DNA of 64,000 nucleotides from Blasia pusilla (Eukaryota): NCBI GenBank assembly GCA_050084515.1, contig CM114271.1, positions 47,864,001 through 47,928,000 of the forward strand, in the 5' to 3' direction. Below are positions 3,503-54,721 of the stretch, piece by piece (position 1 is the stretch's first letter; each line of letters begins with the position of its first letter). The notes under the pieces are model-generated. The model had not been told where the DNA came from. It made no database searches and saw nothing but the letters and a program-made list of their open reading frames with translations. A program made the translations under genes and the position numbers.

Positions 3503-3630
3503 TCTCGTGTGCATACACATCGCTACACAACAGACATTGCTGTCAATGATCATACATACAAACACGCACGATCCCATGCTAATTCATGGCATCCAAACAA
3601 CGAGACAAGAAGTACCAGAATATCTCCAAT
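3503..3630 (-). repeat. Terminal repeat segment A2 of copy 1 (~128 bp)
   Basis: Similar to 4152-4278, 47266-47393 and (inverted) 57604-57714, 58235-58362; core cacgatcccatgctaa.tcatggcatccaaa.aacgagaca...aatatctccaat. Confidence 0.9.
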
Positions 3631-4149
3631 AAAATAAGATCCAATCTCTCTCAACACCATAGCTCTCAAATGTGTGCGCTCTCACATGTCTCTCTCAATG
3701 TCAAACCAAACCAAACCCACTCTCCTAATTAGAGGCTTGGGTTACACTCACAAGGCAAGGGACCATAGCTCTGCTGCCTCGTGCCAAGAGGTTCAACAAA
3801 GAGAGAATGAGCTCTCAAGCTCTCTTTCTCTTGAAGGTATATTTGCTTCCCTCTCCCAAGCTCTCTCCTCGATAACCTATGCTTGTAGGTCATCTCCTTG
3901 TCTCTTGACTTGCTATAGCGGGTCAAGGGCCACTTCCTAAAGTGGAAAGTCAACTATACTCCAAATGTAAACTTACCCGAAATAATAATTTTCTCTATAT
4001 GGCTCCAAATGAGCCGAAACAAAGGGGAAACCTGCTCTCTCAAGTTACATGTGCCCTCAACAGGTCATCCTTGACCTCTTGAAGTTGTCCTCCAATATCT
4101 TCGAAGGCGCTCTACTAAATCTCGCTGATATATCCTAAAATCCGTGACA
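3631..4149 (-). repeat. Terminal repeat segment B2 of copy 1 (~520 bp, LTR body)
   Basis: Direct repeat of 14551-15063 (aaaataagatccaatctctctcaacacc...cctaaaatccgtgaca). Confidence 0.92.
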
Positions 4150-4151
4150 GT

Positions 4152-4278
4152 TGTCGTACACATACACATCGCTACATAACATACATCGTTGTCAACGATC
4201 ATACACACATCATCCACGATCCCATGCTAACTCATGGCATCCAAATAACGAGACAATAAATACCAAAATATCTCCAAT
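4152..4278 (-). repeat. Terminal repeat segment A1 of copy 1
   Basis: Direct repeat of 3503-3630; separated from B2 by a 2-bp spacer (GT, 4150-4151); directly follows the PPT on the minus strand. Confidence 0.9.
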
Positions 4279-4288
4279 CACCCCCCTA
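4279..4288 (-). promoter_or_regulatory. Polypurine tract (plus-strand primer) of copy 1
   Basis: Minus strand TAGGGGGGTG immediately before A1; copy 2 has TAGGGGGGCG at 57594-57603. Confidence 0.75.
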
Positions 4289-4462
4289 GTTGGTGGTTAG
4301 GTGCCTCTAACTCTAGATAGCCATCTATCCCTACCTACCATGACATACATCTCTCGGACGTTAAGAGCAAAAAGGCCGAGTGCTCATATGGCCCCATCAT
4401 TAGTCGCCTTCTTGTCATCCATGTCACAGACACAAGTCAGAATCTAGAACTACCTACTCTAT

Positions 4463-4612
4463 GTACATCTGGGATACATCCATCATCCTTGAGGAACCCT
4501 AGTGAGAGGTGGCCTCAGACATGCCATATGCCACCCTCTCAAACACCCATCACAGACTAGCATAGTGGGTGCACCACGAGCGGAACCACACAACATACAT
4601 CGCAAGCCTGCA
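4463..4612 (-). pseudogene. PHD finger at the C-terminus of integrase, copy 1
   Basis: Translation AGLRCMLCGSARGAPTMLVCDGCLRGWHMACLRPPLTRVPQG*WMYPRCT: C4-H-C3 PHD pattern with W before the last pair (one Cys mutated to Tyr). Confidence 0.85.
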
Positions 4613-4629
4613 AGAAACTAGTGCTAAGC

Positions 4630-5830
4630 TGGGATTAACTATACCGTCAATGTCAGGAAGGTGACATGGCATAGAATTACGTACATGGTCCTTCCAAACT
4701 ATACCATCGCGTCCCTCCAATAAGAGAACACCAAATGGAAAAATCTCATGCATTCTCAAGATGGTGTGCCCTACAGTCACATCCAACATCGTGGGTCTGC
4801 TGCAAGTAGACATAGTCTCCTTGATGAAACCTCCATATAGTCGGTCAATAACTACGTCCCCGAATAGTCGCATACCTCAACGTATCCCGATGCTATGCAA
4901 TTGCCAAGTTCTTAAATGCCATGGGCATCACTCTCTGAAACAACTCAGCCTTAGAGAACATGCTCGCATCCATACATTAGGGTCATCAAGGTTCAACACC
5001 TCACCAACAAAAATGGCCGCAAGTAAATCTGGCTCTCGGCCATAAAGCAGCAAGTAGGGTGAGAAAGACGCTAAGGATGCGTGCTTGTTGAATCTATATT
5101 CCATCGCCAACCACGGAAAATGGAGGTCCCAATCTCCTAGGTGACCTCTCTGCAAGCCATACTTGCGTAATCGTCTCTTCACCGTCTGCACAACCCTCTC
5201 CGCTAGTCCGTCCGCCTCAAGATGATCTCGCAAAGTGATGCGGTGGTCGATCAACGCCTGATCACACAAGGCCTGAAAATCCCCGCGAAAATCCGTACCC
5301 TGGTTTGTCAACACCTCAACTAATGCGCCTTAATGACTCAGCACTTGATCTAGGAAGGCATACGCTACTCCCTCACTCGCTTTGTCAAGAAATGCAAGCA
5401 ACTCTATCCACTTCGAGAAGTGCTCGACCATCACCAACACATAACGACTATGGCGCTCTGTCAAAGGCAAAGGTCCTGCAAAATCCAAACTCCATCTATA
5501 ACCTGAACCCATGATCGGAAGTGGATGAAACTCTGGAGTTGGAGCATTGAACGATGCTTTGACTTGATCACACACCATGCACCTGGCAACAAACTGTTGA
5601 ACGTCAGTCTACATGCCTCGCCACCAATACTGTATCTAGAGCAAGCTGTACGTCTGCTTCAGTCCAAAATGACCCAACTCCTCGTGGGCATGATGCACCA
5701 AACGCGCTCTCTATGAAGGATAAGGCACTACACGTACTCTACTATCCTCCCAAATTCGCAACACATGTGCCTCCTCCCACCATAACCATTTGGCTCGCTG
5801 TAGGATCCAATCCCGCTCTCTAGCACCCAC
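4630..5830 (-). pseudogene. DDE integrase, frameshifted, copy 1
   Basis: ORF pieces ...CDQVKAS...LPIMG...WSLDFAGPLP...YVLVMVEHFSKWIEL..., LTNQGTDFRGDF...H.EADGLAERVVQTVKR...FSPYLLLYGREP: typical Gypsy integrase core. Confidence 0.9.
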
Positions 5831-5898
5831 TGTGCTTGCGACGTTGCCAGTACGCAGGTACTCAAAGACCACTCCATCGTCGTGAATGTCTCGGCCCC

Positions 5899-6700
5899 CT
5901 ATCGCCCCTCACCGGCCTCTAGATTGAAAGACTCTCCGTGAGACCTCGCCATCGAAGTTTCAATAATCTGGCTTTCCATAGCCAACAAGCCCAAATAGGC
6001 TGACGCGTGCCATCTTCGCACCAAATCCTCATCACTCTCACCAAGCCAACGAGTTCCAATCGCATCTCGCTCACTCAGGCATGGGTTACGGCTCAAACCA
6101 TCTTCATCTTGGTTGAGCATCCTAGGTCTATGCACCACTTGGAAGTCATACTCCTGCAACAAAAGAGCCCACCTCGCAAGCTTCCGTGTAAGCTTGTCGG
6201 ACTCCATCAACCACTTAAGTGGCTGATGATCACTAACGATGGTAAAGGGATTGCCGAATAAATAACACCTGAAATGTGCAATAGCCCACACCGTAGCCAA
6301 GCACTCACCCTCATACAAGCTATACTTTGCCTTTGCAGCGTTGTTCGAGCGACTAGCGTAAGCCACCACGAACTCTCTACCATCATTATCATGCTGGGTG
6401 AGCACCGCTCCAAGCCCCAGCACGCTCCAATCGGTATGAAACTGGAAAGGACACCCCTTGGTCGGTCTCCTCAATATGGGCGCGGATGTCAATCTATCCT
6501 TGAGTAGCTGAAATGCTCTCTCATGCTCATCCCCCGAGTGCCACTCCTAATCCACCTTGGTCAGCAAGGTTAGCGGCTTCACAATCGAACTGAAATCCTT
6601 GACGTACCGTCAATAGTAGTTCGCCAATCCCATGAATGCACAAACTCAACTCACATCTATAGGGCGTGGAAATATCTCCTCTAGATGTCACTCCTGCTCC
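5899..6700 (-). pseudogene. RT C-terminal remnant plus RNase H, copy 1
   Basis: TSAPIL...FQFHTDWSVLGLGAVLTQ...VVAYASR...YEGECLATVWAIAHFRCYLFGNPFTIVSDHQPLKWL...KLARWALLLQEYDFQVVHRP: Ty3-type RNase H. Confidence 0.92.
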
Positions 6701-7049
6701 TTGTCACTTGTGAGTAGCCGATAGGCTGAGATCTATCGTGGATAGGGCATAGGAGCCACTGGACTATCTTGAGTGTAACTTTGTCCCGCGGCGTTGGATG
6801 AGGTTGAGGATAGGTCCGTTGTGTCAGGAACGTTGTTTCTAACAACCTTCCTGTTGTGGTCTTTCATAGCCGGATGACTTGTTGAGCAAGTCACCCGTCC
6901 CTGGTAACATGTGCGCGCAGGTGGTGTGTCGATCTCCTCGGGTCTTGCCCCAAGCCACTGCCTCAACCCTCTCGGTAGGCATGGGACTCACCAATGCAAC
7001 AATTGTGATCTGTCGCATCCTCAAACGACGTTGTTGAGCTACTCCTAAG

Positions 7050-7995
7050 CTAAAAATCCATGTCAAGCAGTTCAGGTCCATCGCCTAACCCAAGATATGA
7101 TGTCGTGAATGCCTATGATAGTGATGGTATTGCCGTCACTCCTATGGGAAATCCATTGCTTGCTCTTGCTCATCAGCGTTGGGCTCCACCAGCCGTTGTA
7201 CTTGGTCATCCCAAACCAAGCCACGCCCGGCCTCCTTGAATGCATAGGAAGCCGGAAAGCTCATAAATGTGGGAAAGGCTGCCTATGGCATGCCAATCCT
7301 ATTGACCACAGTCAATGGCGATCGATCATTGTGCCTCACTGCTTGTGATCGATGGCGCGGATCCAACATGGAATCCACCAACAACTAGAAGGGGCACTCC
7401 ACTCGTGCATATGGCCTCCGCAACACCTCGTGTGGCATCAAGTTGGTCCACCAAAGACGCGGGCGGTGTGCTCTACAACCGACACTCTCCGCATCCAAAA
7501 ACACTACTGAGCCAAGCCAATCCATGCACGCACCTAATGTGCACTCGTGACCACCCGTGACCTCGAATCTCCCAAGATCGGTACATCCTACAGAATGTAT
7601 GATGTAGAACGGGAGTGATGCTCCTGCAAGTATTGCAAAATCCACATCCTCTCCCAAAATAACCTAGATCAAGTATTAGCTAACCCACTTCCTTGTCCAA
7701 CACTCGATTGGCCCTGACACGGCCAACCAGAAATGACCAAGTTGATGGTCCCTACCCGCTCCAAGTCCTGCGCCCCCAACAATGAAATATCCCTTGGTAG
7801 GGAACTCTGGTATCCCTCGATATTGGATGCAGACAACAAGTCAAGAAATGGAGGCGTAATTGCGCCACATGGTGAAGTGAAGCGCGCCGCGCAACATCAT
7901 CAACCTCCACATACAAGTATTGCTGCACGCGTACTCTTGCCTGCAAAACAACACCTAACCCAGTGTTGATCCCTCCAAAGAGATCCAATGCGCCA
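7050..7995 (-). pseudogene. DNMT3-type DNA cytosine-5 methyltransferase domain within pol, copy 1
   Basis: Motif I LDLFGGINTG, II YLYVEVD, IV INLVISGWPCQGQS, VI degraded YIL*DV, VIII GCRAHRPRLWWTNL, IX EPNADEQEQAM, X HILG*AMDLNCLTWIF, in canonical order. Confidence 0.88.
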
Positions 7996-8310
7996 CACAA
8001 TGGGTGTGGTATCCAAGGGCATCATCATAGCATTCTCAGCTACCTCGGGTTCCTCTGACCCATCACGCTCTGGTGCAAACGTCTCGCTCCATACCGTCTA
8101 CACATACACAACGCCTAAGCGTTGAAGCTCCTCAATCGAGCCCCAAAGCGGAACCTCTCCTCCAAGGACTAATGCGGCTACCATGACACTCCTCTCCATA
8201 GAAATGTCAGAAATGGAAGTGTCCTCTGCATGGACATGTTCCTCAATCAAATGACTAGGCCAATTGATGGCGCTGCTAAATGCTACTAAGGTCACCTTCT
8301 CTCTTGGCCA

Positions 8311-8770
8311 TCACTCGATCACTGCATCTGTAAATTGAACGGGTAATGAGCTAAGGCGTCCATCACTTGAATGCCATCTTGGTCTGTAGGATGCTGACTC
8401 CTCCAAGTAATCCAAGGAAAACCCCATCGGATACAACATTGCTCCACCAACCAAGATGTCGTAGGACTTTGGATCGATCACTATCGCCTTGGTTTGCACC
8501 ACGAACTCATCTGTAGGATGTCCTAGGCAAATCCTCACCATGACCTCCTGTCGGGTGATATACTGTGTGGTACTTGCTCCACCCAAGGATGTCTGTATCC
8601 AGAATGGACAACGCTCCACATCAGCTCTGGTAAAGCTCAGACCTCTAGATGCCGCTTTCCCCAACATTAGGGATTGCGCTCTTGAATCCAACAAGACGCG
8701 ATGCGGACTAAAAGCTCTACCTCCTAGACTCACCAACTAGAAGACCTCGCCCCGGTAATCCAGCAATACA
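8311..8770 (-). pseudogene. Retropepsin aspartic protease, copy 1
   Basis: RVLLDSRAQSLMLG (LDSGA in copy 3) ... SYDILVGGAML. Confidence 0.82.
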
Positions 8771-8899
8771 ATACTAGGAGAAGCCATGGCACGCTCTATC
8801 GCAGGTCTAGCGGGTATCTCCGCCATCCTAGCAGCCGTAGCTTGCCATGAATTTGACGTGGACAGCACGAGTATTGGCTCCAAGGGCAGGTCCATCACC

Positions 8900-10913
8900 T
8901 CCTATGCAATCACCTCTAAACGTGATGCAGGAACTCCATATCCATGCTCACATAACATAGCGGCCAGCCAAAAAACCTCGGCGGGCATACCTCCCAATGT
9001 CATAACATCGCAAATAGAAAATAAAGGAGCGCAGTACACAACGGTGGCCGCCCCCAACAACATCCTCGACACATGCTCCTCCTGAGCATCAGCAAAAGGA
9101 GTCATTGCACTTGCTTCTCCCATCGCCCTATGTGCCTGCACACCAACAACATCACCAACTCTCCGAGAACTCGGATCAAGACCCATCAATGGGGTCCTCA
9201 TTGCCTCAGATAACGTGAAAGACTGAGGAAGCCTCGTCTGTTTCCTGGCTTCCCCTCCCTGTGGATCCAACTCTACGGCTGCTCCACGCGTAACAACTGC
9301 AGCGGCCTCCATCTAGGCACCCCGCATATCCAACCAGGATCCTCCATATCTCTCGCTGCTCCATAAGACGTTGATGCCACCAATCTGGCATCGAGTAACC
9401 TCAATGCCATAGCGGCAATCTGATGTTGTATCTGAGCAGCCATCCCAGCCTCACACCCGGCATCTCAATCAACGCGTCTAGGTGGTGGGACTCTACCTTC
9501 TCCACGGGAAACTTTACCACCCCCGCGGGCAAATCCAACTCCTCGTCCCCCAACATGACCAACTGATGCACAACCTCAAGGCCCACCTGGACCGGCAACT
9601 TGCTCTGGTGCCCTCTCTGGCCCTCGGTCCAGACATAACTCAGGGTGCAAGCTGAAACACCTGGCACGTGTGTGATCATACCTCTGATAATAGTCACATT
9701 GAAAACCTCTTGGTGTAGCACCATCTCCTCCTCCATGCTGCGGCACGCATCCATGACCCTAACAAGTGCAATCGCATTGGTGATGGGCTCCACCATATGA
9801 CCAATAAGTAATCGTAGGCGGCTTCAACTGAGCCGCATATGAAGGCGCATGTCTCTGTGGCACGGCCTCCCGATATCCTCCTTGAGCTCGTGGTGCCACA
9901 GACCTATCTCGGAATCCACGTTGGTGCACTGATGGTGCAGACAATCATGACTGCTCTCGCCCAAAACCCATGGTGGCTATGGTCTCCTCCGCCATGTTGC
10001 GCTCAATGTTCTCGGCGGTCCTAAAAACATCTCTCAACAAAGGGAAGGTGTTCATAAGAAGCACCCCCTTTCGCACACGTGTCCGTAGGGTTTGGTCTAG
10101 CATCGTGTATCATGACTGGATAGCCTAAGCCTTAGTCGCCCCTTGAGTGATGTTAATCAACCGATGCAAGCGGGTGTAGGCCTCACGCAAACTCTCATCC
10201 AGGCGCCTCTAGAAGTTGTGGATGCTCCGCAACTTCTCAGTCTATCCCCCCTGATAGCTTGTCCTCAACTCCGTAAAGAACTCAACCATGGAGTTGAACC
10301 TAGGGTGAACTCGATTGGACGGTGCAACTGCTCCAGTTTGAGTTACCCCTCTTAAAACATCACTTGCGGAAGAGGAAGAGGCCTCTCTTGACTCCTCCTC
10401 CTCGTCGGGAAACGGCTCAGCCCATGACACATAGTAGGGTTGCCATGCCTCAATCTCCTCGGCATATATGTGGGAAAAATCATGGTAATCGTCCATGGGC
10501 ACCCCCTCCAAGTGTTGGAACATGCTATTCCATGTTGTAAACGGGTTGAACTCTCTAGAGTTCCTAACCTGTTGTGAGTCGCACCAACTACTAAACTCCG
10601 CAATGAAGTCATGTAACTCTATAGTGCCTACAACACCCAAAAACCTACGCGGTCCTCTACCCCAATCTTCCATCTTGTACGCCCAACTGGTACGACCACT
10701 CAATATGTGCGGTGGATCACTAACATCCTCCTCTACACTCTCCCCCTTATCTGAAGACAACACAAAAGGAGATCGAGGTGGTCTCTCACGTGGAGGCCCT
10801 CGAAACCTTGTACCACTCCGGGTAAACCCTGTAGAGCTACTCTCAGGTCTATCACCTCGCCTCTCAAAGTCCCAAAAGGACGTTGTGATGACCCTCGTGC
10901 CCCTCTCATGCAA
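8900..10913 (-). pseudogene. Gag with two zinc-knuckle-like motifs, copy 1
   Basis: PRRFLGVVGTIELHDFIAEFSSWCD...FQHLEG; degraded knuckle TYWSYGGAHHQCDC (TCWSCGGAHHQRDC in copy 2); lies 5' of the protease. Confidence 0.75.
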
Positions 10914-13900
10914 TCACTCTCAACTTTGCGAGTAATCATGCAACCACTCAATCTATCATGCGGCACTCAAGCTACACTCTCTCACTGAGACGTGTGCCAT
11001 GCGACAACAAGCGGAGTGGTGCGGCAAATTGTTTACTATCCTATCATCTCATCGACAGGACACATCCTCAACTCTGGACATCTCGCACAGGTCTATCTCC
11101 CCTACATCCATACATCATTGATGCTCTCAGCATCAGCACAAAACCCAATATCCCCAAATAACTTCCCAATACCCGGAAATCCCTAACACATGTAGGGCAA
11201 AAGACCAGAATGGGTAACCTGAATAAATGTTTGTGTCGCTCCTCAACAACTACAAAACCTACACCCCAACTCGGTTGTGGAGACAACTCCTCCAAATAGT
11301 ACGTCGTACTCCCGTGGTACTAACGGTGCTCCAAAACCTCTTCGATGTGCATTGCGGATCTAGCGATACGGTACGGCATTGGGTGGCACGGAACGGCTAC
11401 AAATGGCACAACACTAGGGAATGGGGTGCGGCACTCAGCGGCATATCCTCCTCAATAACAACATACACGCTCTGCTTCCACTGATGGTGCGGCTCAACAA
11501 TCGAGACAATGCGGTGAGGCGAGGAGCGGCATGACGCGACAATTCGTGGCGCGTTGCAGCAACGGGCGTCATGGCACGATACTCGATTGTCGTTGAGCGG
11601 TTGCCTCTACGGACATGGCAAAGCGGAAATGAAACTAGGACCCCATCAATTGACAAAAATCACCTACTATGCCGACGGCGTCCAGAATGAAATATGTCGT
11701 GGCGGTGTAAATCTCATAAATCACCCCATCAACGACCATCAATCCTAGCCGTCCAATTTGCGACAGCAAGAAACATTAGCCTGATAAGCGATGGCAGAGG
11801 TTTGGACGGATAGCGGTCACGTACCCAGACGGATGGTGCAGGTTGAACCGACGGCGTAGGCGCAAGCGAATGGCCGGCGGTCCATTGGCGGTTGCAAGAC
11901 TTTTAGGTCCGTAGCAAGCCCTAGTCGTTGCTCGAGCACGGGGCAGGCACGTCTATGACAGGGCGGAAGTGGTCGGGCTCGTCCGTGAGGGCCGAACTAG
12001 CCAGACCATATATAGCCATTGCAGCAAGCCACGTACGTATGTGGGGCATGGACAATAAAAGTGGCGATGCAGTGGGAGAGTAGTAGGCTAAGCCAGCTGA
12101 CCGCAGCGAAAGGATACTGAGTTGCTGCGAAGTCGGCGATAGCGTTTGGCTTCGTTAATCTGACTGGAGCGGGGCTGGTTGGGCGGTTGGGCCCAGTTGA
12201 ACACATAACATAAGTGGTAGTCGGGCTAGCTACGGATCGGGAAAGGGCCTGGCGACTGGTGGCGGCCGCACACGACGCGCGAGCGGGAAAATGGCGGGAC
12301 CACGTCAGGGCGGTCAGTATGGCAAAACATGGTCGGACACTACGGATGATTGGCTGCATCCGGATTGCACGGGGCAGTGGCATTCACGGCAACGTACGGA
12401 GCGGAAAGTAGCACGCCGGCGAGGCAGCATAGGGGTGACGTTGTCGTATAGTAAAATCAGCCAGTATAAACTCCGTCCTCATTAAGTGTTAGAAAAAATT
12501 TTATTAGTATTAAATAAATAAGCTTAAAAAAGAAAAATTCCCATATTTACACCTCTTTATGGTGTATTTTTTATACGGGTCCAACTTTAGGAAAAGAAGT
12601 AATAAATAAAAGATAACTTTATAAAAGTAAAGTAGTGACGTTAGTGATTTAATAAAAAGAAAAAGTAGTTCTGGTTGGTGGCTAGGGTAGTTGGGGTAAT
12701 TTGGAAAATATCAAGGGGATAAAAAAGGATATTTTGGAAGAGATAAAAGGAAATCTAGTTGTGTCAAAATGTGATTGGCTACGCCTTGAGAGGAAGTCAT
12801 GTGGCACAGGATAAGATTAGCTCTATTTCGTACTCTTGTGGATCCCTTGTGAGTATATAAAGAGGAGGGACCTTTAAGGGTTCATCACCTTCTATTTCAC
12901 ATCTTGAGTCTCTTGTGTTACTCTTGAGTGTATGGCTTTGGGATTCCTTGTTCTTCCAATGAGAGTGGATCATCCCTTTTGGGAGAGTAATTTGATCATG
13001 ATCTATTTTTTGAGAGGTTTCTAGAGTGTGGTGTGTGTGGAGATGAGAGGCTTGTCATCTTAGAGGAGTTTAGTCATACTAAAATAGTGAATGTTTTGGT
13101 TTGTTATTTTCCCAATGAAAGTGGATTAACCCTCTTGGGAGACTAACTCTACCAAAGCCCATTCTTGAAGAAAGTAGAGAATGTCTGTTAAGCATTGATA
13201 GGGATGGAGCACGAGTTGTGCCCGACTTTCCTTTCCTCAATCCTTATCATATCAAGGTACTCTTTGTAGATAGGCACTGGTTCACTCGCTATTTAGTTTA
13301 TCATTTTGGGGAGGCGTTCATGAACCAGGTCATGCAATCTCCAACTCCGGTGATTCTTCCTATCGTCACATATGGAAGGACATGGGATTGTACTTTGCAT
13401 GTCCTTGTATAGCAATCCATGGACGTCAATAGGCTCGCTCAAGTAGGGTTTAAGACTAGTTGCGCTATCTTCCTCGTGTACAAGCGTAAAAAAGTTTATG
13501 AGGATTTTATAGTTAGGAATTTTGGGGTCCGATGTTACGAAGAAATGATTGCCTCGGCACTTCCATTTGTGATACGTGTCGTGAGAGAATGGAGAGTATA
13601 CATAATAATTTTGTATTGAAAAAGGAGAACTTCTAAGAGAGTTTACCTTGCATCAACCACGTCTGCCGCGACTAGAAAGCCTGCCCTTACTCAAAGAAAG
13701 GCTCTCAACACGCCAACGTGGCGGGATTGGCGTGGCTAGTTCGAGTCGGCCCACTACAAATTTGGGAGGCTCCCAATCTCCTCCCCAATTTTATCTTCTT
13801 ACTAAATTACACCCTGAAAATACGGGTTTCTCTATTTTTTCCTTACTTGACTATCCCCCTTCTAACAGATTGCAATCTGAGGGCTTCTCCACAACTTTCA

Positions 13901-14534
13901 CCTAGACTTAAGGGTCAACAACCCCAAAAAAATTTTCAATCATTTTCAACACCCCACCAGCTCTTTCACTTGTCCTATCCACCAATAAACTAGTTTTTAT
14001 TTGTCTACCTATCACAAAGGATTTTTACTCAAGAATTTCGGAAATTTCACTCACACCATGGAACGGTGGCTATGGCAGACCTACGAAAATGATCGTAACT
14101 TCACGATAAATTGATCAAATTGCGCACCATTTCTTCCACATCCTGCATCGCTTCCAGATCTACATCAGCGTCAAATTAGGGACTGCCGTGCAGTCCAACG
14201 TCCCTTTCTCCTACACAAAATTTGGCAGCGCTTCGTGATGATTTCTTCCCAATAAAAATGTAAAACCTGTGAAAACACAAATCAGCAAGCTACATGGTGC
14301 TTTGGAGAGCACCGGTATGGGGCAACCCGCCCCCATACTCAATTCCTATCAGAAATTGGGCAGCGCTTCCACGTGCCACTCTCTTGTACAAAAATCAGCA
14401 AAAAAGAATAATAAACTCGCGCGGCTCTTGCTTCGGTGAGCACTCCCATGAGCCATGAAACGGGGAACACGGTCCCCCAACGTGCAACACACATCGAGCA
14501 ACCAGCGAGCTCCCCCATGAAGCTCTCTCATTCA

Positions 14535-14550
14535 CTCATTCTCTCTTTGT
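14535..14550 (-). promoter_or_regulatory. Self-priming-type primer-binding site, copy 1
   Basis: + strand ctcattctctctttgt is the reverse complement of acaaagatagaatgag (14711-14726, 1 mismatch) in B1 and of acaaagagagaatgag (3796-3811, perfect) in B2. Confidence 0.7.
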
Positions 14551-15063
14551 AAAATAAGATCCAATCTCTCTCAACACCATAGCTCTCAAATGTGTGCACT
14601 CTCACATGTCTCTCTCAATGTCAAACCAAACCCACTCTCCTAATGAGAGGCTTGGATTACACTCACAAGGCAAGGGATCATAGCTCCGCTGCCTCATGCC
14701 AGGAGGTTCAACAAAGATAGAATGAGCTCTCAAGCTCTCTTTCTCTTGGAGGTATATTTGCTTCTCTCTCCCAAGATCTCTCCTCGATAACCTATGCTTG
14801 CAAGTCACCTCCTTGGCTCTTGACTTGCTATAGCGGGTCAAGGGCCACTTCCCAAAGTGGAAATTCAACTATACTTCAAATAGAAACTTATCGGAAATAG
14901 TAAGTTTCTCTATATGGCCCAAATGAGCTGAAACAAAGGGGAAACATGCTCTCTTAGGTTACCCGTGGCCTCAGTAGGTCATCCTCGACCTCCTGAGGCT
15001 GTCCTCTAGTATTTTCAAAGGAGCTCTACTAGATCTCGCCAATATATCCTAAAATCCGTGACA
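14548..15063 (-). repeat. 5' terminal repeat B1 of copy 1
   Basis: Minus strand TGTCACGG...TATTTTACA; direct repeat of 3631-4149. Confidence 0.92.
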
Positions 15064-18830: not shown

Positions 18831-21800
18831 CTAAGATAGCAAGATACTTAAATGAGCATGTCCATATCAATTCAAAATTGAACAAAGAGCTTTATAACTA
18901 CCATGTACTCTCTTTTGAAAACAAGTTATCCAACTAGAATTATAAGAGAAATCAATGTGTGTATATTCATAACTCCTCACTTGTTCTACTTGTTATCCTT
19001 TGTAAAAGAATGAGAATTTTGATTTAGTACCCATTACAATCATTTTAGACTTTTCAATGTTCACCTTCATCTAATTATGGTTGTAGAAACTTTCCAAAGG
19101 TGTTTATGTAAACTACATGTATCACATGCAAGTTAAGGATTAAACATCCAAAGATGAAATGATGCCCAAAATCCATTTTAGATTTTGCAAATGGAATTGT
19201 TTATCTATTAGTAATGGTATCACTTCCATTTCTATTGTGTAATATTTCCTTTCTATTGAAACGTATATTTTATTCATCTACAAGTTTTTCATTTTTACAA
19301 AAAATATAACTAACTCTTAAAAGGTTATGAGATATTTTCTACTATTTCATTAAAAATATACATTCCTTAAACATTCTTAAAATGCTAGAAGGCTTTCACT
19401 TTCAAATTCCAGAGTTGAAAACCTCTTTATCTTTCTATGTTATTATTTACTTCAAAAATAGAGAATTTTGAATTTGGTGTTTTTTATTCCTATTACCAAA
19501 ATTAGCAATAGAAGAAAGTCATTTTCTTTCAAATTTCTTGTCAAGTTCCTTCATCACGGTTTGGAAGGGCAGGGTTTCACCTCTGCTAGCTTTCAACATG
19601 TTGGTAATAGGATTAAAACAACCAAGTCTTTAGAAAAAAAATTACTAAAAAATTTCAAATTTATTCCTGTTACCAAGAAATTTGAAATTACTAAAAATAT
19701 TCTTTTTTCTATTGAAAGAAAGTCATTTTCTTTCAAATTTCAAATCAAGTAGTGTAGCATTTCGTCATAATAACTTCCAAAGAGTAGAATGGGAATTTTG
19801 AATACGTGAGAGGAAGGGACGAGAAGGTAAATTTTTAAGGAGGGGCAATAGGGTTTTCTTTTTTTCTTATATTTAGTGACATATGGAGGGTTGTCTCTCT
19901 AGAAGTGATGAAAAACCCATCAAGAATACTCAAAGAATCGAGTACATGAAAGCCACAATCTGCCCAAAAAAATAAAAGAAGGCACCCCCTTCACTAGCGG
20001 GTTTGGGGTTGTCTATGTATGTTAAGGTATACATACATAGAGGACCCATTAATATGCACCTATTCGGCATGAGAAAAAAGAATGAGATAGATAAGAGGAG
20101 GAAGGGGCCTATGAATAGCTTGGCTCCCCCAAATAATATTATAATAACGCTTAGGATTTGATTGATCGACATGAAAAAAAAAGGCTAACCCTTTTGACAA
20201 AAAAAGTGCTCACGCACATTCGAGCTTATCCCGAGCCCTCTAGGCCTCGACCAGAACCCTATGGCCCACCTTTAGACGCAGCTTCCCATGGGGTTAATGT
20301 CATGAATCAACCTAGGTTTTGAGTACAACTAGTCACGATATCCTGTAGTTGTTGAGCATCCTCCACACTTCAAGCGTACGAAACAGCGGCCATCACATGG
20401 CTCTCCAACTCAAGTTTCCCTCAAGTTATGAACAATCTTATGCCTCTAACGGTTTCCCTCCCTATGGGAGTCTTAACACAAATTTTTTTTCTATGCCCAA
20501 GATGCATTTTTATTAGCTTTTTTATGCATGTGCGGTGGGTAGGATATACATTTCCATTCCTTGAAAGAGTATAGGTATGCAAATGGTAGAGATTGAAAGC
20601 GAAAATAGTTTGTAGAAAATGGAATGACCTTTTGTTGTGTCAAGAAGTACGGAATCAAAGGGAAATCTTCGATCTCTCTTGAAGGATGAAAACGAAGGGG
20701 GGTCTCTAAAGATCTCCATGGCCTACTGTATCCGACGAAAGCACTAGTATGACTTCAAAAGGAATAGTTTGAATTTAGGTTGAGTAATTATTCAAATTTT
20801 TCTTCATTTGTGGTTTCTCGAACAATCATCTTTAGTCCTTTCTACAAATCTATATAGATAGTTTTTATATATTTTTCTTATTAGAGTAAAAGATTTAATG
20901 ATTCTACTCATCCACTATCAATCATGGGCCATAACAAGCACTTTGTAAGCGTTCACGACTAATTTTCCACAAATGAAAATTCAGTCTCCGTTGTATAAGA
21001 GATTTCTATTACTAAATTCCTGTTCCACAAAGACTTTCGATCTCCTCAACCTTGTGAGCTGGGATCAGATTCTAGGAGACACCATAGGTCGAGACCCCTC
21101 TCGGGAACAACGTCTCTTGATACCATTCTCAATATCGGTGAAACTACGTTCAAGGCGTTGCACTTTTCTCCTCCCTGTAGCCATGGCTATGTATCCCCAC
21201 CCTTGTCTGCGGTTTTGGTGAAAGTGGGTCTTTCTCCCCGACGTTGGAAGTCATTGGCCAACGGCCAGTCCTCACTTGGGCGAGCGTTTCGCTTCCGAGA
21301 TACAGTATGTCCTGCTTGCGTGATGAACGAGGCTAGTAACAGCTCACTTTCATTAATCATTTGCACTCGACAACTTGTAAAAATTAACTTTGTAATGGAA
21401 TTTGCGATTTTGAAAGCAAATCTTCTTTTGTTTAGTTCAAAATGGTCTGGTTGGCTGGAAGTGGTCACACATTTATGGTTTAAAACACACTGCGAGATTT
21501 GCAGAGTCAGTAGAGATGCGAGTAGACATGGTGGCGGAACTGCCCGGACCTCCAAACCAATCCAACCCGGAGACCACCTGGGTCAAGTTCCGTATCCAAA
21601 CCTCGGTGTCGAAGTGAGGGTCCATTGGTTGTTCGCTTCCGGAGTTTCCACCCTTCCAGTACTCCGCAGTAGGCGCTATCTCTAGTATAACTTATCCATG
21701 ATTAAATGGTAAGAATTTCAGATTTCCTCCTGCAGCCCCACGAGCCTCACCGTCTGCTCAATCCGAGTTCCGACAAAAGGTAAATTGCAAGTCAGCCAGT

Positions 21801-22430
21801 CATCGGGATCCAAACTAAATTTCTGTTGCCAGTACTAATTACTTGTCCAAGACCCTTGAAGTGTGAGAGTAACGAGGAGAATCATTGTAACACTGAGAAC
21901 CGCAGCTTGACAAACAAGACATGAACTTTACAGAATGTACGGATTTGATTACAATGTACCCAGGCTAGGCTACTGATGTTTTATATACAAACCCTGACAC
22001 CGGATGTGCATATATAACTCAAACGACGAATCTATCTCAAACAGTGAAGACCTCCTGCAACAACCATTCCGACTCCGGCAACACTGCATCTGGAAGGGCA
22101 GTGTCATCAATATACTGGCAACAGAATTTTTGACAAGGCTACCTAACCACAAGTGGGCATTCCATGCTCGCAGAAGAGAGTAACCTCTTATAGATGAAAA
22201 ATTTACAAGCCTTTTGAATGGAGAATTCTCTGACCTACAAATACATCCCACTCAATAAGCTCCCAGCCCACATCCAAATCCGTGGATGCCGTTTCAAATG
22301 TAACTTTGAGCGAAGGGTACTAATTACTTTGCTTTAAAAGCCCAATATCACATTGGAACGGAAAGAATTGTGAAGTCGTCTGCACTTCCTTCCTGCAGTC
22401 AGGGGTCCATGATCCCAAGGAGATTCACCA

Positions 22431-25400
22431 TCATATGTAAACTGTCCTTACATCGTTTTGTCCAAATGGTACTCCACAACCAGGACATTTGCGGTGCCTA
22501 ATCTCCAAATTTCGTTGAATGCATGGACCACAAAACAAATGATAGCACTTCGTGATAACAACCTGAGGAAGGAACAAGCATCCACAAGTAAGAATGATGA
22601 CGAATTTGCGAGTTACAAAACAAGATGCTCTATGTTTGCTCAAGTTTCTAATCCTAGACTCACATAGGGGTAATTCGAGTGAAGTGTCACAGTACTGGGA
22701 ATCTCCAGGGGGGGGATTATTTTTGGACAAAGGTCTGCTCAGTAAGAACTCAATTATTCCCACTGTGCAAATGGGCAGTTTACTTATTTTCAGAGGGTGG
22801 ACTTCAGAAACCATCACCGTACTCGACGACATAATTCTTTTGCTTGAGTTGCTTAAGGTCTACACTCCCTTAAGAAGGTGTCCTGACACGACCACCATTG
22901 ACAATAGTATATTGAGTACAGTAGCAAAAAATATTGATGACTAGAAACTTGTGATTCTTTACAGGTTACCTCCTTGGCTCGATCATGACACACACTACAC
23001 TTGAGGATGGCCCTGTACTCCTTGATTTCTTCTTGTAATCTTTCAATCATTGGGCTCCCATCATGATGAGAACCAAGGCGTGCAACTTTTGTGTTGAGGG
23101 TATCAAGCTCTTCTTGCATTCTCCTCTTCTCAAATCTGATGACAAGTTTTGCATCATCAGTGGTCACCATCAGGATACTATCCAGACACAACTCACACAA
23201 GCTAACAAGCCACATGGCAAAGATCTATGTGATTTGCAGTGAATAACCATCTAATGCAGTGAGACTCTTGGATGACTTCAAAACATACTGAATAGCTTGC
23301 ATACCTCTCCTTCTCCAGTTCTCCTTGAACCTCCACAATTTTGAGTCCCCGTTCTTCTACACTCTTCTGTGTGGCTTCGAGAGCTGACTTGGTGGATGCC
23401 ATCTCTCTCTCCACCTCCAACTTTTGTCGTTTAGCATTCTCCAATGCTGACAGATATTGCCTACTTTCATCTGTGGCTTTACCCAGCTGGTCCAGGTACG
23501 ACCTTGCCTGCAAGGTAAAATAGTTTGGCTGAGTCTTGGCTGAGTGAGCTTTAACTCTCAAACACTGAAAGCTTAGAGGCATGAAACCACGTGTAATACA
23601 CACTCTCTAATTCTAACTTAAAAAGGGATTTAGCCTCAATACACCAGTTCTAGAAAAGAATTGTGACACATAATCAAACCTGTTCATCCAGCCGGGCAAG
23701 CCGCTGCTTGTGCCCATCGGCTGTGGAGGTTGCTTGTTGCATTCGACTGACTAGCAATTGCTTTTCTGCTTGTAGATTTGCCAGGGCCTGCTTTGCCTTC
23801 AGGCTCTCGGCAACCAGCTGATGATAAGGAGACAGTATACAAAGAAAGTTAATATACTCAGAGTGTCTAGTCACTATTGACCAAGAAAATCATTTTACAA
23901 TCTTATTTGGATACACTACTGGAAAGTTGCTTTCTATTGTCAACCAAGCCAACTAAATGGTTGGAGCAAAAGATTATGCACATCCACAGATTGATATTTC
24001 TCTTCCTCGTGCAACAAGGAATCTTGATGGCATCTTCCAACTTCCTGTCCAGATCTTCACCTGAGTGTTATAATCGTCCCTCTCTGTTAGCTGTTGGAGA
24101 AGTCTTTGATTCTGTGTTTGCATATCTTCATATGCTTGGCCAATTGTCTGCAAAAAAATTCAGCCCAACCACACCACATTAGCATGACATTTGACCAAGA
24201 AAACTGCATCCAAGTCAGGTCAGAATGGCAGGAAAAACTTAACCCACTTTCAGCTTTGAAAGCACAAAACAGGAGTGTAAGCTTCCAACCCAAAACACCA
24301 GTACAAAAAAGAAAAATAAAGAAGTCAACAAGAAAGTTAGTAGCTAACCTCAATTTCCGATATATATGCATCCCCTTCTTCATTTTTTGCCTTCAGGGAC
24401 TCTCTCAGTTCCATTGCCACTCTAAAACACCCCGACAAATCACCAATTGCTTTTAAGATGCCTTGATCATGAGGCGAGTGATAGACTCCAATAAATCCAT
24501 ATCAATGCGGAGAGAAATGCATCTGATTAAACTTGCTCATATCATAAAATTACCCTAAATGCTATATTGTCACTGAGTAAGAGTGCAGTATTTGCAGAGA
24601 ATTGATTGCATCACAAACCTTTCCGAAGAATCTAACTGCTGCCGTAGCTCAGCGATTTCCGCCTCTGCAGCTGTCAGCCTCTGCTGACAAGCTGCCTCAG
24701 CTTCATTAGCGGCCTTCACACGAAGTTCTAAGCTATGCTCATCCAAAGCGGTCTTCAAACGCTCTACTTGAGCCCATGCTTTGCATTCAGCTTGCTGCAG
24801 CTCCATGACATCCCTGTGCAAAGTCCTCATGAGAATAATGTCACTACATACGTAGGACACTTGGTGCCAAAGATGTACAGAGAAAATTACAACAGAGTGA
24901 ATCAAACCACATGACTCGAGATGAAATGAATAGGGCAACTACTTGAGATCTCCTTCTGATATGGTGACAGTACAGGGACTTCAACTCCCATCCCTTTTCC
25001 ACTTTGTTGCTCAGCCATGAGTATTCTTGAAACAAAAAAGTGGCTCAACAAACTTTCCTTTGAAAATTATACCATTAGAAGAAACTTCCTTTTCTTCACC
25101 CAAAAGAGCTACAGTTCTAGCAAGTAAAAAAAAAGCTTAGTCAATTTCAACAAACAACATTCACTGGTCAACTTCCAGGGCCAGCCTTAAAGTTGCAATG
25201 GGAATGAGCTCAACTGCCCAAACCAAGCTTTGAATGTGCCAACTTTCTTTCAAAAGCTTTTCAAACAGCCGGAAAAATTGCACCACAGTTCATTCACAAT
25301 TCAGCCAACTCTGTCCTATCTGCACTCAAAATAAAAACCTTTTAGGGCTACCATATATAGAAAGGCGATGTTTACTCCCTGAACTGTGTACAAGCCAACT

Positions 25401-25789
25401 GGAGAGACAAGTTGAATGTACACAGAATGAAAAAAGTAGGGAGAGGAGAATACATGGCCGCATCATAAGCAGAGTAGAAGACAGAAACTTCACGGATGGA
25501 ATCTTACGTTGTGGCAAACTAATTCCCATCACCATGCTAAAATCGCAGACAATACAGGGCCTGGTCAAAGAGTTGATCAATGAAGGAGCTCAAGGTACCA
25601 CCATTCAGGAGACCGTGAGCAAGACTATACCAGAAGATCCATGCCTGAACTACCATAAAGCTCCTTAGGAAGAGCAGAAGTTTGCAGATATGTACGTAGG
25701 CCTAGAAATGAGTCAGACGCAAATCGTGCCTCATCACTTTGACTTCCACCAAGTTCAGTACAGAGGATAGAAAGGAGTAGGCTGCCCAT

Positions 25790-25835
<46 letters not shown>

Positions 25836-28800
25836 GGTTAAGTATACGAGAGGCATGATGAACAGCTTGTTAAAATAAAAATCAGACAAGCTGTTCCACT
25901 GAAATGGTCAGGAAAAAAAAACCCAAAAGCTCGTTGAAACAAAACAAGTGCAAAGATAATAATGTCATAAATGTGCTCAAGGATGAAGATTTGACAGTGA
26001 TGTATCATAGAAACCGGACCCATGAATGGGAGCACTGTGTTGATATGCCATGAGTGAAAATATTCAGAAAATATCTGACTTTCCTTCAAGTAAACTACTG
26101 TCCAAACAGAACTAATATTAATCAAGTAGTGGCGTGAACTTACAACTTTAGAACCCACACTCTGGTTGGAAGTTCTACAGACTAGGATGAGTGCAGAGGA
26201 GCAAGAGGTAGGTACTGCGTAAAGGATTCAAGAGAGTGACAGGGAGACAAAGATGTATCTATAAATTAAAGCAGTCTGACAACACACGACAATACGCTTT
26301 ATTGAAAAACAACTTGAACAGGAAACAGCTGCCAAAAATGGAAAGGTTCATCTGAAGAAATCCATAGTAACACCTCCCTACCTTGGATCACTCGACTCCC
26401 TTCCATACATGTCCAGTATCAGCTTAAGTTCTTGTTCACTGTCTTGTAAATTTCGAACCTGCGCAATGAAGTTAAGCATTTCCAGGTGAGTTGACCAAAG
26501 AGCTCCACTAAAACCAGTCCAGGTATATAGCTGCACTTGACTTAAAGGACAAACTAACCTTGCCTCCATCCTGGAGCAAGACATTGAAACACTCTTTATG
26601 GTAACTCCTAGTACCATAATTTTCAAAAAATTTACAAAATGACACATCTAGAATAATAGGTGAATATTCCAAATGACTGTCTGGACACAAGAAAAAAGGA
26701 AACAGGCTCACCTCATCCTTCAAAGCAGTTAATTCTGAAATCTGACCGGCATACTGCTCCGCAAGATTTTTGTACTCACTTGTCTGCAGCAATGGATCTA
26801 TTTCGTTAGTATGGACACAATCCGTGGCAGCTTCTTTTCTTAGTGTCCTCATTATAAAGATACTAGTACTAGTTAGCATGCCCTTGCTTCAAATATGAAA
26901 ATTGATCATTTTATTCTATTAAATTTGAAAGGAATAGTAACATTCCACCCTTCTAAATAACTTCACTCTTTAATTCAAATTAAAATAATCTCCAACTCCC
27001 CTAAGTAATTCCACCTTTCCATAAAAGTCTAGACAATACCTACTCCCCCCTCCACTCCTCCCACCAAAATAACGCACATTCATAAAACTATAAGTTAATT
27101 TTAATGAATGAAATCATTTCCCTCTTCCTTTCATCTGCCCTTCCCAAAATATCAGGTGTGAATTAAGAGACAAAATTGCAAGCTTGTTGCAATTTTGTCT
27201 TCGTATCTACTATTGTCTTATTATGCATAGGGTCGCCAATTGTGATATACATACAGAGAATGCCAGTTACCTTTCTTTCAAGGATGGATGCAAAAGAATG
27301 AATCTCGGCACGAAGTGAATGTACTTCAAGGGCAGCCTCCTTGTACTTGTTCAGCTGGACTTGCATCATGCTCATCTCTTTATGGAGGGTTGTGACCATT
27401 ACTTTGAGCTCAGAAACAGAATCTTTCCTCCCTGGCATATTGACAGTCCCAGTCTTCTATTAGATACGTTATAACACCAAAACAGAAATAAAATTAGGGA
27501 TGACTACAGAACTCTTCAGCCAAAAAACTTGGCCAACTGCTATGCCATCTATTGAGAATCTGTGGACAACAAAGTTGTCAAAGCACAATTCACCAAATCT
27601 AGATGTTCCAATAATAAAATGGTGTGGATAATTGGACCTTGAGCTTGAGCTGCATCCTCTAATCTCAACTGCAAGCAATCTCTCTCAGCCATACATTGCT
27701 GGAGCTTTATTTCCAAATCTGCTATTCGAGCATCTGCCATTGCACTGGTCCGCCGAGCAGCTTCCACAGGCTCTACTTTAAGAAATAGCTCCTTCTCTCG
27801 CTTCACTGCTGTATCACGCTCAATCTGTGCATGTGGACCATTAGGATATGATTTGAGTACACTAGATGTACAAGACGCAAATGAATGTTTCAGGTTTTGC
27901 ATCCACCCTTGACAGTAATCTCACCTGTAGTTGATCAATAATATTACGGTACTTATCCACCTCAGTCTTGGCATACTGTAATTGATCATTGAGGAGGAGA
28001 TATGGTTGAGAAGAGATAATTCGCTGCTCCTCTCCCAACAAGTCCTGTGAATTCCATTTGAACAACCCAAGAAACTGCAGGTCAAATATAATACCAGCAA
28101 AAAGTTTTCTACCACAGAACAAATATCCCTCCTCTCCAGGTCGCTAGTATTGGGAATGTGATATCACATGGACATGAGTAGCATATCCCCTTCCTGCCTT
28201 CTCACCTACTTCAACTGAAGTCTTAGAAAGTCACATTTATTAGTAATACCTGCATATGCTGAAGCTTTTGGGAAAGATTCAACTGCGTTTGATGTGCTTC
28301 TTGGAGTTCAGTGAGCCTCCTGGCTGCCAATGTCTGTTCATTAATCGTTGAGGATGAAAAACAAACATCTCAATGTTAGTAGGACAGAGATGAGCACGAC
28401 TCCAAGACTGCCAAGCCATGTGGGAACAGTCCTTAGTTTATGCCCATAGCTTTGTGGCATGACCAAGTTGAGAGGACTAACCTCAAATATGATTTGCGAA
28501 GTAACAGACATATAGAGTCTCCAAACCATTCACAATCCTTCTCAATAGATAGAGAAACAGATAGTAAATGCCACTTGCCTTGGCCTCCTCTAATCCAGCC
28601 TCTAACTCCCTGGCCTCCTTCGACATCTTTTCACCTCCTCCTCTTTCTCCGTGCTCACTTTTGGATGCAGTCAGCGGGCTGGGAGTTAATGGGGCAGCTA
28701 AGGCATCTTTCTGGTTTCGTAGAGTTGTAATTTTTCGCCTACTTGTCTCAAGTTCAGCAGCTGTCTCTTCCAGCTCACCTGCCCAGAAATGTCAACAAAT

Positions 28801-39967: not shown

Positions 39968-39977
39968 TGGAATGGGT

Positions 39978-39999
39978 AGAGAGAGAGAGAGAGAGAGAG
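39978..39999. repeat. (AG)11 microsatellite between the two LINE copies
   Basis: Directly visible. Confidence 0.95.
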
Positions 40000-40000
40000 T

Positions 40001-40993: not shown

Positions 40994-41473
40994 TGTTATC
41001 TCTTTTGGAGATCGGGAGATCTAGACTTAGGAGGTTGAGGTTGATGATGACTTCTTTGAGGCCCCGGGAAACCTGAGAGAGCAAGTTTCCCCTTCATTTC
41101 GGTTCATTTGGAGCCATACTGAAAAACTTACTTTTAGGTAAATATTATTTTGAGTATATGGTCAACTTTCTATTTTTGGTACGTGGCCCTTGACCTCCTA
41201 CATGAGGTCAAGAGCCAAGGAGATGACTTGGGAGCATAGGTTACCATGGAGAGAGTTTGGGAGAGGGGAGGGGTATCAGAGGGATATATCTGAGAGAGCT
41301 TGAGAGCTCATTCTCTCTTTGTTGAACCTCTTGGCATGAGGCGGCGGAGCTATGGTCTTGGTTGCCTTATGTGTATAACTCAAGCCTCTCATTAGGAGAG
41401 AGGGTTTGGTTTGACTTTGAGAGAGATATGTGAGAACTATGGTGTTGTGAGAGAGATTGGATCATATTTTACA
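40994..41473 (+). repeat. 5' terminal repeat B1 of copy 2
   Basis: Direct repeat of 57717-58234; TGTTATCTCTTTT...ATATTTTACA. Confidence 0.9.
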
Positions 41474-54717: not shown

Positions 54718-54721
54718 GAGC

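Follow-up and report, generated by a model that had tools for sequence, protein, structure and literature searches.

Cytosine methylation is the main route by which plants silence their transposons, and a transposon that carries a de novo methylase of its own is therefore a paradox. The closest described system is KnitGypsy-Dnmt3 of Klebsormidium nitens, a Gypsy-type long terminal repeat (LTR) element with a domain resembling DNA methyltransferase 3 (DNMT3) in its Pol open reading frame (ORF), whose acquisition de Mendoza et al. (2018; PMC5890265) place 'in the K. nitens lineage'. The same study describes SymbioDIRS-Dnmt3 of Symbiodinium, two copies of which methylated CG sites de novo in yeast. 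Further sources speak of 'streptophytes (Gypsy-DNMT3)' (bioRxiv 10.64898/2026.05.21.726589) and of retrotransposon-embedded DNMT3s 'in streptophytes and dinoflagellates' (PMC12344493). Here, we analyse a stretch of 64,000 nucleotides from the liverwort Blasia pusilla (GenBank assembly GCA_050084515.1, contig CM114271.1, positions 47,864,001 to 47,928,000 of the forward strand), the whole of which is called the window in the following. From our point of view, it is highly probable that the window harbours three dead copies of a family of liverwort Ty3/Gypsy-type elements that carry a DNMT3-like cytosine-5 (C5) methylase between protease (PR) and reverse transcriptase (RT).

Self-comparison of the window and tblastn searches with Marchantia polyproteins revealed three separate insertions of one Ty3/Gypsy-type family, all of them decayed. 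What appears to be four pieces represents only three insertions, as copy C has split one element into the parts B and D. This follows from the reading of the junctions, where the B/D sequences flanking C are adjacent bases of an unbroken RT sequence on both sides (exact nesting), and from the RT alignment, since removal of C in silico leaves a single-frame tblastn alignment to residues 696-975 of the related protein P0012 that spans the B/D join. A segmental duplication of one locus can be excluded, as the flanks of the copies differ and C is nested in B/D. The window copies are about 80% identical to each other, and since the terminal A repeats described below share only 90% (copy A) and 86% (copy B/D) identity, all of them have to be regarded as old. 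The elements and their coding regions are located as follows:

3505-15063, minus strand: copy A, whole element
9405-10658, minus strand: copy A, gag-like region, aligning to residues 9-413 of P0006
8311-8736, minus strand: copy A, aspartic protease region, with the active-site motif LLDSRAQ at 8674-8694 (LLDSGAQ in copy C)
6926-8030, minus strand: copy A, DNMT3-like C5-methyltransferase domain, from tblastn to P0006/P0012
6025-6672, minus strand: copy A, RNase H (PF17917, E 1.5e-34)
4901-5947, minus strand: copy A, decayed integrase of the DDE type, from tblastn to residues 1817-2167 of P0054
41023-47264 and 54718-58363, plus strand: copy B/D, whole element
45750-46885, plus strand: copy B/D, DNMT domain with complete motifs I-X
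47033-47264, plus strand: copy B/D, start of RT, in frame +2 like the PR-DNMT alignment and interrupted by C
54718-57104, plus strand: copy B/D, remaining RT, RNase H and integrase (PF00078, E 3.6e-17, on 54687-55190)
47265-54717, minus strand: copy C, whole element, inside the RT of B/D
50229-50498, minus strand: copy C, protease region, with LLDSGAQ at 50472-50492
49223-49848, minus strand: copy C, DNMT motifs I-VIII, with an open ORF of 163 amino acids at 49208-49696
47574-48958, minus strand: copy C, RT (48101-48958) and RNase H (47574-48080)

According to Pfam and tblastn, the Pol order in the window is gag-PR-DNMT-RT-RNase H-integrase (INT), and PR-DNMT-RT is colinear in B/D and C. Across this part, the window copies can be aligned with Marchantia polyproteins. 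The order PR-RT-RNase H-INT with a DDE integrase in last position bears out the initial annotation, which had assigned the elements to Ty3/Gypsy. The gag and PR regions were assigned via alignment to Marchantia proteins and P0054, as the broken gag and PR ORFs of the window returned zero Pfam matches, and the integrase of copy A gave a partial rve match of 21 bits, which is under the Pfam cut-off. Deletions have removed most of the RT of copy A between DNMT and RNase H (P0012 residues about 696-937) as well as the integrase and the B1-A2 part of copy C, in which a 152-bp inverted piece occupies the place where the sequence 3' of motif VIII should be.

The methylase domain is recognized by its motifs, which are located as follows:

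7962-7985, minus strand: copy A, motif I, DLFGGINT
7899-7916, minus strand: copy A, motif II, LYVEVD
7711-7725, minus strand: copy A, motif IV, WPCQG
7582-7596, minus strand: copy A, motif VI, IL*DV, with a stop in place of the Glu codon of ENV
7439-7474, minus strand: copy A, motif VIII, RAHRPRLWWTNL
7163-7186, minus strand: copy A, motif IX, EPNADEQE
7070-7093, minus strand: copy A, motif X, LG*AMDLN
45810-46690, plus strand: copy B/D, all seven motifs in the same order, with motif IV as WPGQG
49244-49785, minus strand: copy C, motifs I-VIII only, with PCQ and ENV intact

Such a set of motifs, in this order and at one Pol position, is far beyond chance. Seven motifs in canonical order had been claimed for the same Pol position in all three copies, which holds true for A and B/D and has to be restricted to motifs I-VIII for C. 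The S-adenosylmethionine loop of motif I, PC and ENV are present together only in copy C of the three window copies. Its ORF of 163 amino acids matches the C5-methyltransferase family PF00145 (E 5.7e-10; 39.6 bits, cut-off 22) and is immediately followed by matches to RT and RNase H. The Pfam assignment that had been proposed as a check was hence obtained, while the ORF fragments of A and B/D, taken by themselves, remained without a PF00145 match.

The closest named relatives of copy C, a decayed copy, among the matches listed are many Marchantia polymorpha gene models with 66-73% identity. A word-based search further returned Calypogeia, Sphagnum and the more distant Closterium (among 37 matches listed), and Mesostigma as well as the chlorophyte Haematococcus came from a profile search (among 51 matches listed), so that the named members of the DNMT-bearing Gypsy elements come from liverworts, mosses, Closterium, Mesostigma and Haematococcus. 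A HMMER search against 1.84 billion representatives (clusters at 50% identity) yielded 5526 proteins at E<=1e-3, of which 351 reached E<=1e-30. The related proteins P0054 (2188 amino acids) and P0208 (2318 amino acids) are single ORFs with the order CCHC zinc knuckle-PR-DNMT-RT-RNase H-INT, and the same order is found in the metagenome locus L035, which consists of one frame of 2163 codons with only 2 stops. All three contain the Pol domains PF00078, PF17917/17919, PF17921 and PF00665, and PF00145 scores 35-54 bits in P0006, P0012, P0054, P0208 and L035. The continuous PR-DNMT-RT frame that the initial annotation had suggested to look for is hence lacking in the window, where no copy is open, and is present in the single-ORF relatives P0054 and P0208. 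The catalytic motifs are intact in the open relatives. In a family alignment of 54 sequences, conservation reaches at least 90% at the catalytic Cys of PCQ, the Glu of ENV and the Arg residues of motif VIII.

Past selection on the domain was estimated as the ratio of nonsynonymous to synonymous substitution rates (dN/dS) with our own Nei-Gojobori script, using frame-checked codon segments between window copies and skipping stop codons. For DNMT motifs I-VIII, dN/dS was 0.19 between C and A (191 codons; bootstrap 0.11-0.31) and 0.15 between C and B/D (188 codons), and for motifs VIII-X it was 0.33 between A and B/D (144 codons). The other regions gave values of 0.24 for RT, 0.17-0.22 for RNase H, 0.36-0.54 for gag, 0.50-0.65 for the protease region and 0.66 for the integrase. 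Third codon positions account for 58/104 and 73/124 of all differences in the DNMT codons. An analysis with one assumed frame across the frameshifted parts of A and B/D had produced noisy dN/dS values of 0.37-0.52 and was replaced by the frame-checked segments. Since decay after insertion can only push the ratio towards 1, the low values mean that the methylase was constrained in the past as tightly as the replication enzymes: as long as the lineages were active, purifying selection acted on it with the same strength as on RT and RNase H. As a separate observation, dS differs by region in the same copy pairs (0.6-0.9 for DNMT, 0.37-0.53 for RT/RNase H and 0.18-0.41 for gag, PR and INT), which hints at recombination between family lineages or at uneven mutation.

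One could imagine that the association is a chance event, namely a host DNMT3 retrocopy or fragment within one element, or host genes amid transposon debris. The Marchantia models with the domain are indeed annotated as ordinary proteins, one of them as 'DNA (cytosine-5-)-methyltransferase'. We nevertheless consider this explanation extremely improbable and reject a chance capture or a host pseudogene, as position and frame context are identical in 3/3 independent insertions of the window, single-ORF polyproteins from other sources match in both respects, 351 cluster representatives are found at E<=1e-30 and selection on the DNMT equals that on RT. The domain had been described as an integral part of the family, and its position in 3/3 copies and in P0054 and P0208, together with dN/dS values of 0.15-0.33, supports this view.

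Which kind of C5 methylase the element carries was addressed by sequence and by fold. With the intact domain of P0006, a relative from Marchantia, as query, a phmmer search of the solved structures in the PDB placed DNMT3A first (E 2.5e-11), followed by 3B and 3C (to 1e-9), and gave lower matches to DRM (5.9e-5), M.HaeIII (1.9e-4) and Dnmt2 (3.2e-4). An AlphaFold2 model of the close relative P0002, computed from the 54-sequence alignment, reached a mean predicted local distance difference test score (pLDDT) of 91.8 and a predicted template modelling score (pTM) of 0.90. In a Foldseek search with this model, DNMT3A/3B/3C make up every chain among the matches listed, to rank 49 (best E 8e-19). 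VIA-align of the model against 48,161 chains returned DNMT3B with Z 28.8, DNMT3A with 27.5 and the bacterial CpG methylase M.MpeI with 25.3, and more weakly M.HhaI (22.7), Dnmt2 (20.6-22.5), DNMT1 (19.1), the chromomethylase ZMET2 (18.5) and DRM2 (9.4). The motifs follow each other as I-II-IV-VI-VIII-IX-X along the coding strand in A and B/D, i.e. without circular permutation. The domain is hence DNMT3-like in sequence and modelled fold and unpermuted, in line with what had been proposed initially, namely a resemblance to DNMT3 (2.5e-11 vs 5.9e-5 for DRM) and a motif order unlike that of plant DRM.

Several observations weigh against the reading of a methylase that serves these elements, the first of which is the state of the copies themselves. 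There is no intact copy in the window. The domain of copy A contains 2 frameshifts and at least 8 stops, one of them at the Glu of ENV, with PCQ kept; that of B/D contains at least 3 frameshifts plus stops and has its catalytic Cys replaced by Gly, with ENV kept; and that of C is devoid of motifs IX-X and has 1 frameshift and 4 stops ahead of motif IV. The living gene that the initial annotation had implied is thus not present, as all three copies are broken and encode nothing now. Most related loci are likewise decayed: only L035 has a near full frame among 79 metagenome loci, and only L004 is stop-free among 15 metagenome loci with a gap-free DNMT match of 1104 nt. If these 15 are reduced to 12 by omission of the near-duplicates L009, L016 and L052, the 66 pairwise dN/dS values span 0.32-0.99, with a median of 0.6. 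The highest values occur in the closest pairs, as expected from decay after insertion, and the ratios of the metagenome loci represent pseudogene decay laid over older selection.

A second group of such points concerns expression and base composition. In three RNA runs with the same species label, the RNA depth was 0-0.45 on the DNMT part of copy A vs 20-67 on the exons of a neighbouring host gene, i.e. there was no sign of expression of this part in these runs. At the integrase end of copy A, a depth of 1-3 was found, and since these reads carry fixed differences, they come from a paralogue. The observed/expected ratio of CpG is 0.57-0.72 in the elements vs 0.40 in the neighbouring host gene. 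A CpG depletion as footprint of methylation was therefore dropped from consideration, as the depletion is not element-specific. Finally, the domain of KnitGypsy-Dnmt3 gave no methylation in yeast, a result that the authors call inconclusive (PMC5890265).

Closer paralogues of copy A seem to exist. In one DNA run with the same species label, sampled at about 1 in 100, the read depth rose from about 0-0.6 in unique sequence to 2-17 in copy A, and as most of the copy A reads are 95-99% alike, they indicate closer paralogues elsewhere in that genome. A stretch of about 2.5 kb at 11700-14179, in the 5' untranslated part of copy A, is lacking in B/D and C. Within it, the bin 12739-13405 has a DNA read depth of about 94 vs 2-17 on the remaining copy A and is covered by RNA reads on the opposite strand (depth 7-13). 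Two of its ORFs gave no Pfam match, and the insert looks like another highly repeated, transcribed element nested in copy A.

Given the yeast result, it could be argued that the domain was kept for a role other than DNA methylation. It might bind DNA or chromatin without catalysis and thereby direct integration, or it might methylate RNA, namely the genomic RNA or its primer. The latter option would be compatible with the fact that RNA enzymes of the DNMT2 type share the same fold (Z 20.6-22.5). We regard such a role as quite unlikely, as the Cys of PCQ, the Glu of ENV and the Arg residues of motif VIII are conserved to at least 90% in the 54 members and present in the open relatives, and as the nearest enzymes by sequence and fold are the DNA methylases DNMT3A/3B, not DNMT2.

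For an element with an active DNA methylase, the following course of events can be imagined. In active copies, the methylase would be made as part of Gag-Pol, and being translated within this polyprotein, it should be co-packaged with RT. It would then reside in the reverse-transcription particle. Given its place between protease and RT, it may be freed as a protein of its own or remain fused to a neighbouring domain. In the particle it could meet the new double-stranded cDNA and methylate cytosines of the cDNA or of the fresh insertion. As an outcome, the new copy might resemble host-marked DNA, which would serve as camouflage, or the element might dampen its own expression. Methylation of the cDNA upon reverse transcription has been proposed for DIRS-type elements, with self-DNA camouflage, protection from editing, an influence on chromatin at the insertion site and self-limitation as proposed pay-offs (de Mendoza et al., PMC5890265). 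That the liverwort element methylated its own cDNA is, in our estimate, a serious possibility with chances somewhat below even. Since a pre-methylated insertion would be inherited in a silent state under maintenance methylation, we lean, with similar reserve, towards self-limitation or camouflage among the pay-offs.

A kinship of the family to known elements is indicated above all by its ends, which do not follow the usual LTR plan but show a repeat layout A1...B1-A2-B2 in copies A and B/D and in the metagenome loci L053 and L073. The 5' end consists of a repeat A of 330-520 bp and the 3' end of a repeat B (about 120 bp), A and B again:

14550-15063, minus strand: copy A, repeat A1, which starts with TGTCACGG
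4279-4288, minus strand: copy A, purine run TAGGGGGGTG, resembling a polypurine tract (by eye)
4161-4278, minus strand: copy A, repeat B1
3630-4152, minus strand: copy A, repeat A2, matching A1 along 523 bp at 90.1% identity
3512-3630, minus strand: copy A, repeat B2, 87% identical to B1, with the element end near 3505-3512
41023-41471, plus strand: copy B/D, repeat A1
57604-58363, plus strand: copy B/D, 3' repeats B1 (57604-57700), A2 (57716-58234) and B2 (58235-58331/58363)
54202-54717, minus strand: copy C, repeat A1, which adjoins the right half of B/D
47265-47393, minus strand: copy C, terminal B repeat
L053 6117-15082 and L073 1328-12353: metagenome loci with split repeats

The purine run TAGGGGGGTG is kept in A, B/D, L053 and L073 and lies immediately upstream of B1, not of A2. 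The elements start with TGTCA and end with ...ACA(A), and the internal B1|A2 boundary, which reads as the right end, two bases and the left end, looks like joined element ends. A tRNA primer site of the TGG type was not seen after A1 (by eye). In the four elements examined, with ends set by eye, target-site duplications are exact in L073 (AATC) and copy C (CTC) and imperfect in A and B/D (2/3 bases), and such short duplications fit a DDE integrase. A small number of DNA reads (3-8 per joint) connect B2 directly with the sequence that lies upstream of B1 (3630-4282), or A2 with A1 (3653-14572), which suggests that other genomic copies have lost the A2-B unit or are recombined solo forms.

We take the element to be a land-plant member of the KnitGypsy-Dnmt3 kind, and it is mainly the shared split repeats A...B-A-B that lead us to file it with this family. 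As no Klebsormidium-named protein is found among the 37 and 51 named matches listed, which is a further point against the assignment, the kinship rests on shared architecture rather than on a comparison of sequences. Of ten proteins whose names were looked up, only one carried a name, that of Closterium, and the Atlas showed no more than a generic 'Streptophyta' PF00145 cluster besides phage clusters. The relatives also do not agree in the position of the domain. Of 228 proteins retrieved, 224 contain the DNMT domain, which lies next to PR or before RT in 50 and after RNase H or before the integrase, often with a terminal PHD finger, in 92 of them; in the remaining 82 the proteins are too short for the position to be decided. 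The larger group, a sister group with the order RT-RNase H-DNMT-INT (92 vs 50 with PR-DNMT-RT), has P0075, P0048, P0060, P0068, P0213, P0214 and P0227 among its members, of which P0227 from the chlorophyte Haematococcus is the only named one here. In trees of the DNMT domain, which are unrooted and comprise element-borne domains only, the two architectures are split by one branch with a single change and support 99 (FastTree, 170 rows) and lie on opposite sides of a branch with support 99 (IQ-TREE quick, 61 rows). The window copy falls into a clade with Marchantia and Calypogeia (support 100), and the PR-DNMT-RT clade includes the charophyte Closterium (P0040).

Two Pol positions imply that the module was moved or captured more than once. 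The question hence arises whether the bryophyte family stands apart from KnitGypsy-Dnmt3, i.e. whether another Gypsy lineage gained a DNMT3 module of its own. The missing Klebsormidium name and the published placement of the acquisition 'in the K. nitens lineage' (PMC5890265) would be in agreement with an independent capture, as would the two positions themselves. Yet the odd A...B-A-B repeats are common to the published KnitGypsy-Dnmt3, the PR-DNMT-RT clade already holds a charophyte, and an absent name is weak evidence, considering that no more than 8000 candidates were scored in the profile search. An independent capture therefore appears unlikely to us, and we retain the placement with KnitGypsy-Dnmt3. 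Taking the identity of the family, this kinship and the proposed mechanism together as one overall explanation, we consider it likely, and hold it with good confidence. A further-reaching picture would be that Gypsy-DNMT3 elements form an old and diverse green-plant lineage with two Pol positions, that their termini are regenerated from the internal B1|A2 boundary after the polypurine run and that some members, possibly those of Marchantia polymorpha, are active and methylate themselves; as a whole, this picture is speculative and seems doubtful to us at present.

The host origin of the stretch is documented by the neighbouring gene mentioned above:

about 22400-31000, minus strand: multi-exon gene for a BRE1/HUB-like RING E3 ligase

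Its last exons, which have the RNA depth of 20-67, are separated by GT-AG introns at 22561-22967 and 23136-23304. One exon is 84-85% identical to proteins of the liverworts Marchantia paleacea, Riccia fluitans, R. sorocarpa and Calypogeia fissa, and 73-76% to moss proteins (Sphagnum, Ceratodon, Physcomitrium), and the suggestion that the elements represent a land-plant lineage agrees with these BRE1-like identities, which identify the host as a liverwort. Two additional parts of the window deserve mention. In the short stretch 19409-20075, each of the three RNA runs reaches a depth of about 11, and DNA reads are absent. The reads stop sharply at 19541 and 19606, and in every RNA run about 90-106 of them extend at either end into unrelated sequence, so that the stretch probably represents a small exon of a spliced transcript. 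At 38429-40987, two direct repeats of 1 kb (81% identical) surround ORFs of a non-LTR-type reverse transcriptase, with PF00078 on 39376-40002 (minus strand, E 1.9e-14) and a weak zf-RVT match on 40023-40757.

The paradox outlined at the beginning may become more accessible through these elements. In the papers searched, the sole plant-lineage case named is an alga with few genetic tools, and with relatives in Marchantia polymorpha, a tractable land plant with known methylation mutants, the questions of whether the element methylates its own cDNA and whether this benefits or restrains it would become directly testable. The number of 351 clusters (50% identity, E<=1e-30) and the two domain arrangements suggest that the group is much larger than reported. 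As a practical consequence, several bryophyte gene models named 'DNA (cytosine-5)-methyltransferase' are transposon Pol fragments and not host methylation genes. Our literature search, which did not extend to supplements and subscription journals, found no paper that names these elements in Marchantia, liverworts, mosses or other bryophytes, and none that cites five of the Marchantia gene identifiers.

Cellular DNMT3A/3B/3C are the best matches of the domain in sequence and in modelled fold (Z 27.5-28.8, root-mean-square deviation 2.6 A over 270-279 residues, 23-25% identity), and motif VIII of the domain, RAHRPRLWWTNL, corresponds to AHRARYFWGNL of DNMT3A. The domain differs in that motif IV reads PCQ instead of PC-N in DNMT3A, in that it sits inside a retrotransposon polyprotein and in that the PWWP and ADD readers of DNMT3A/3B were not found by Pfam in P0006, P0012, P0054 and P0208. 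DNMT3 proteins may be without companion domains (PMC12344493). The RT-RNase H-DNMT-INT-PHD elements (e.g., P0075 and P0227) share the DNMT clade and the location within a Gypsy-type Pol, whereas their domain is located downstream of RNase H and ahead of the integrase, which is itself followed by a PHD finger.

Among the published retroelements, SymbioDIRS-Dnmt3 is alike in carrying a DNMT3-like domain in the Pol of an element that makes cDNA before insertion (PMC5890265), but it is a DIRS element with a tyrosine recombinase and belongs to unrelated hosts and another RT lineage, whereas the liverwort element has a DDE integrase and apparently short target duplications. The EpiLTRs of Cymbomonas and Euglena are likewise LTR retrotransposons with a cytosine DNMT, yet theirs is described as sister to DNMT4, lies at the 3' end of pol and is accompanied by an adenine methylase and a chromodomain (bioRxiv 10.64898/2026.05.21.726589). 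KnitGypsy-Dnmt3 comes closest, as it combines an unpermuted DNMT3-like domain in a Gypsy Pol ORF with repeats in the order A-coding-B-A-B, 'like a DIRS element' (Fig. 4 legend), and with purifying selection (Ka/Ks < 0.2 vs 0.15-0.33 in the liverwort element; PMC5890265). It differs in that it belongs to a charophyte alga, whereas the copies of the window, all of them dead, come from a liverwort and have relatives in Marchantia, Calypogeia and Sphagnum. The kind of element has thus already been published for Klebsormidium, and what is added here is not a new principle but an extended host range that includes land plants, a model species among them, and a group that is broader than expected and has two architectures.

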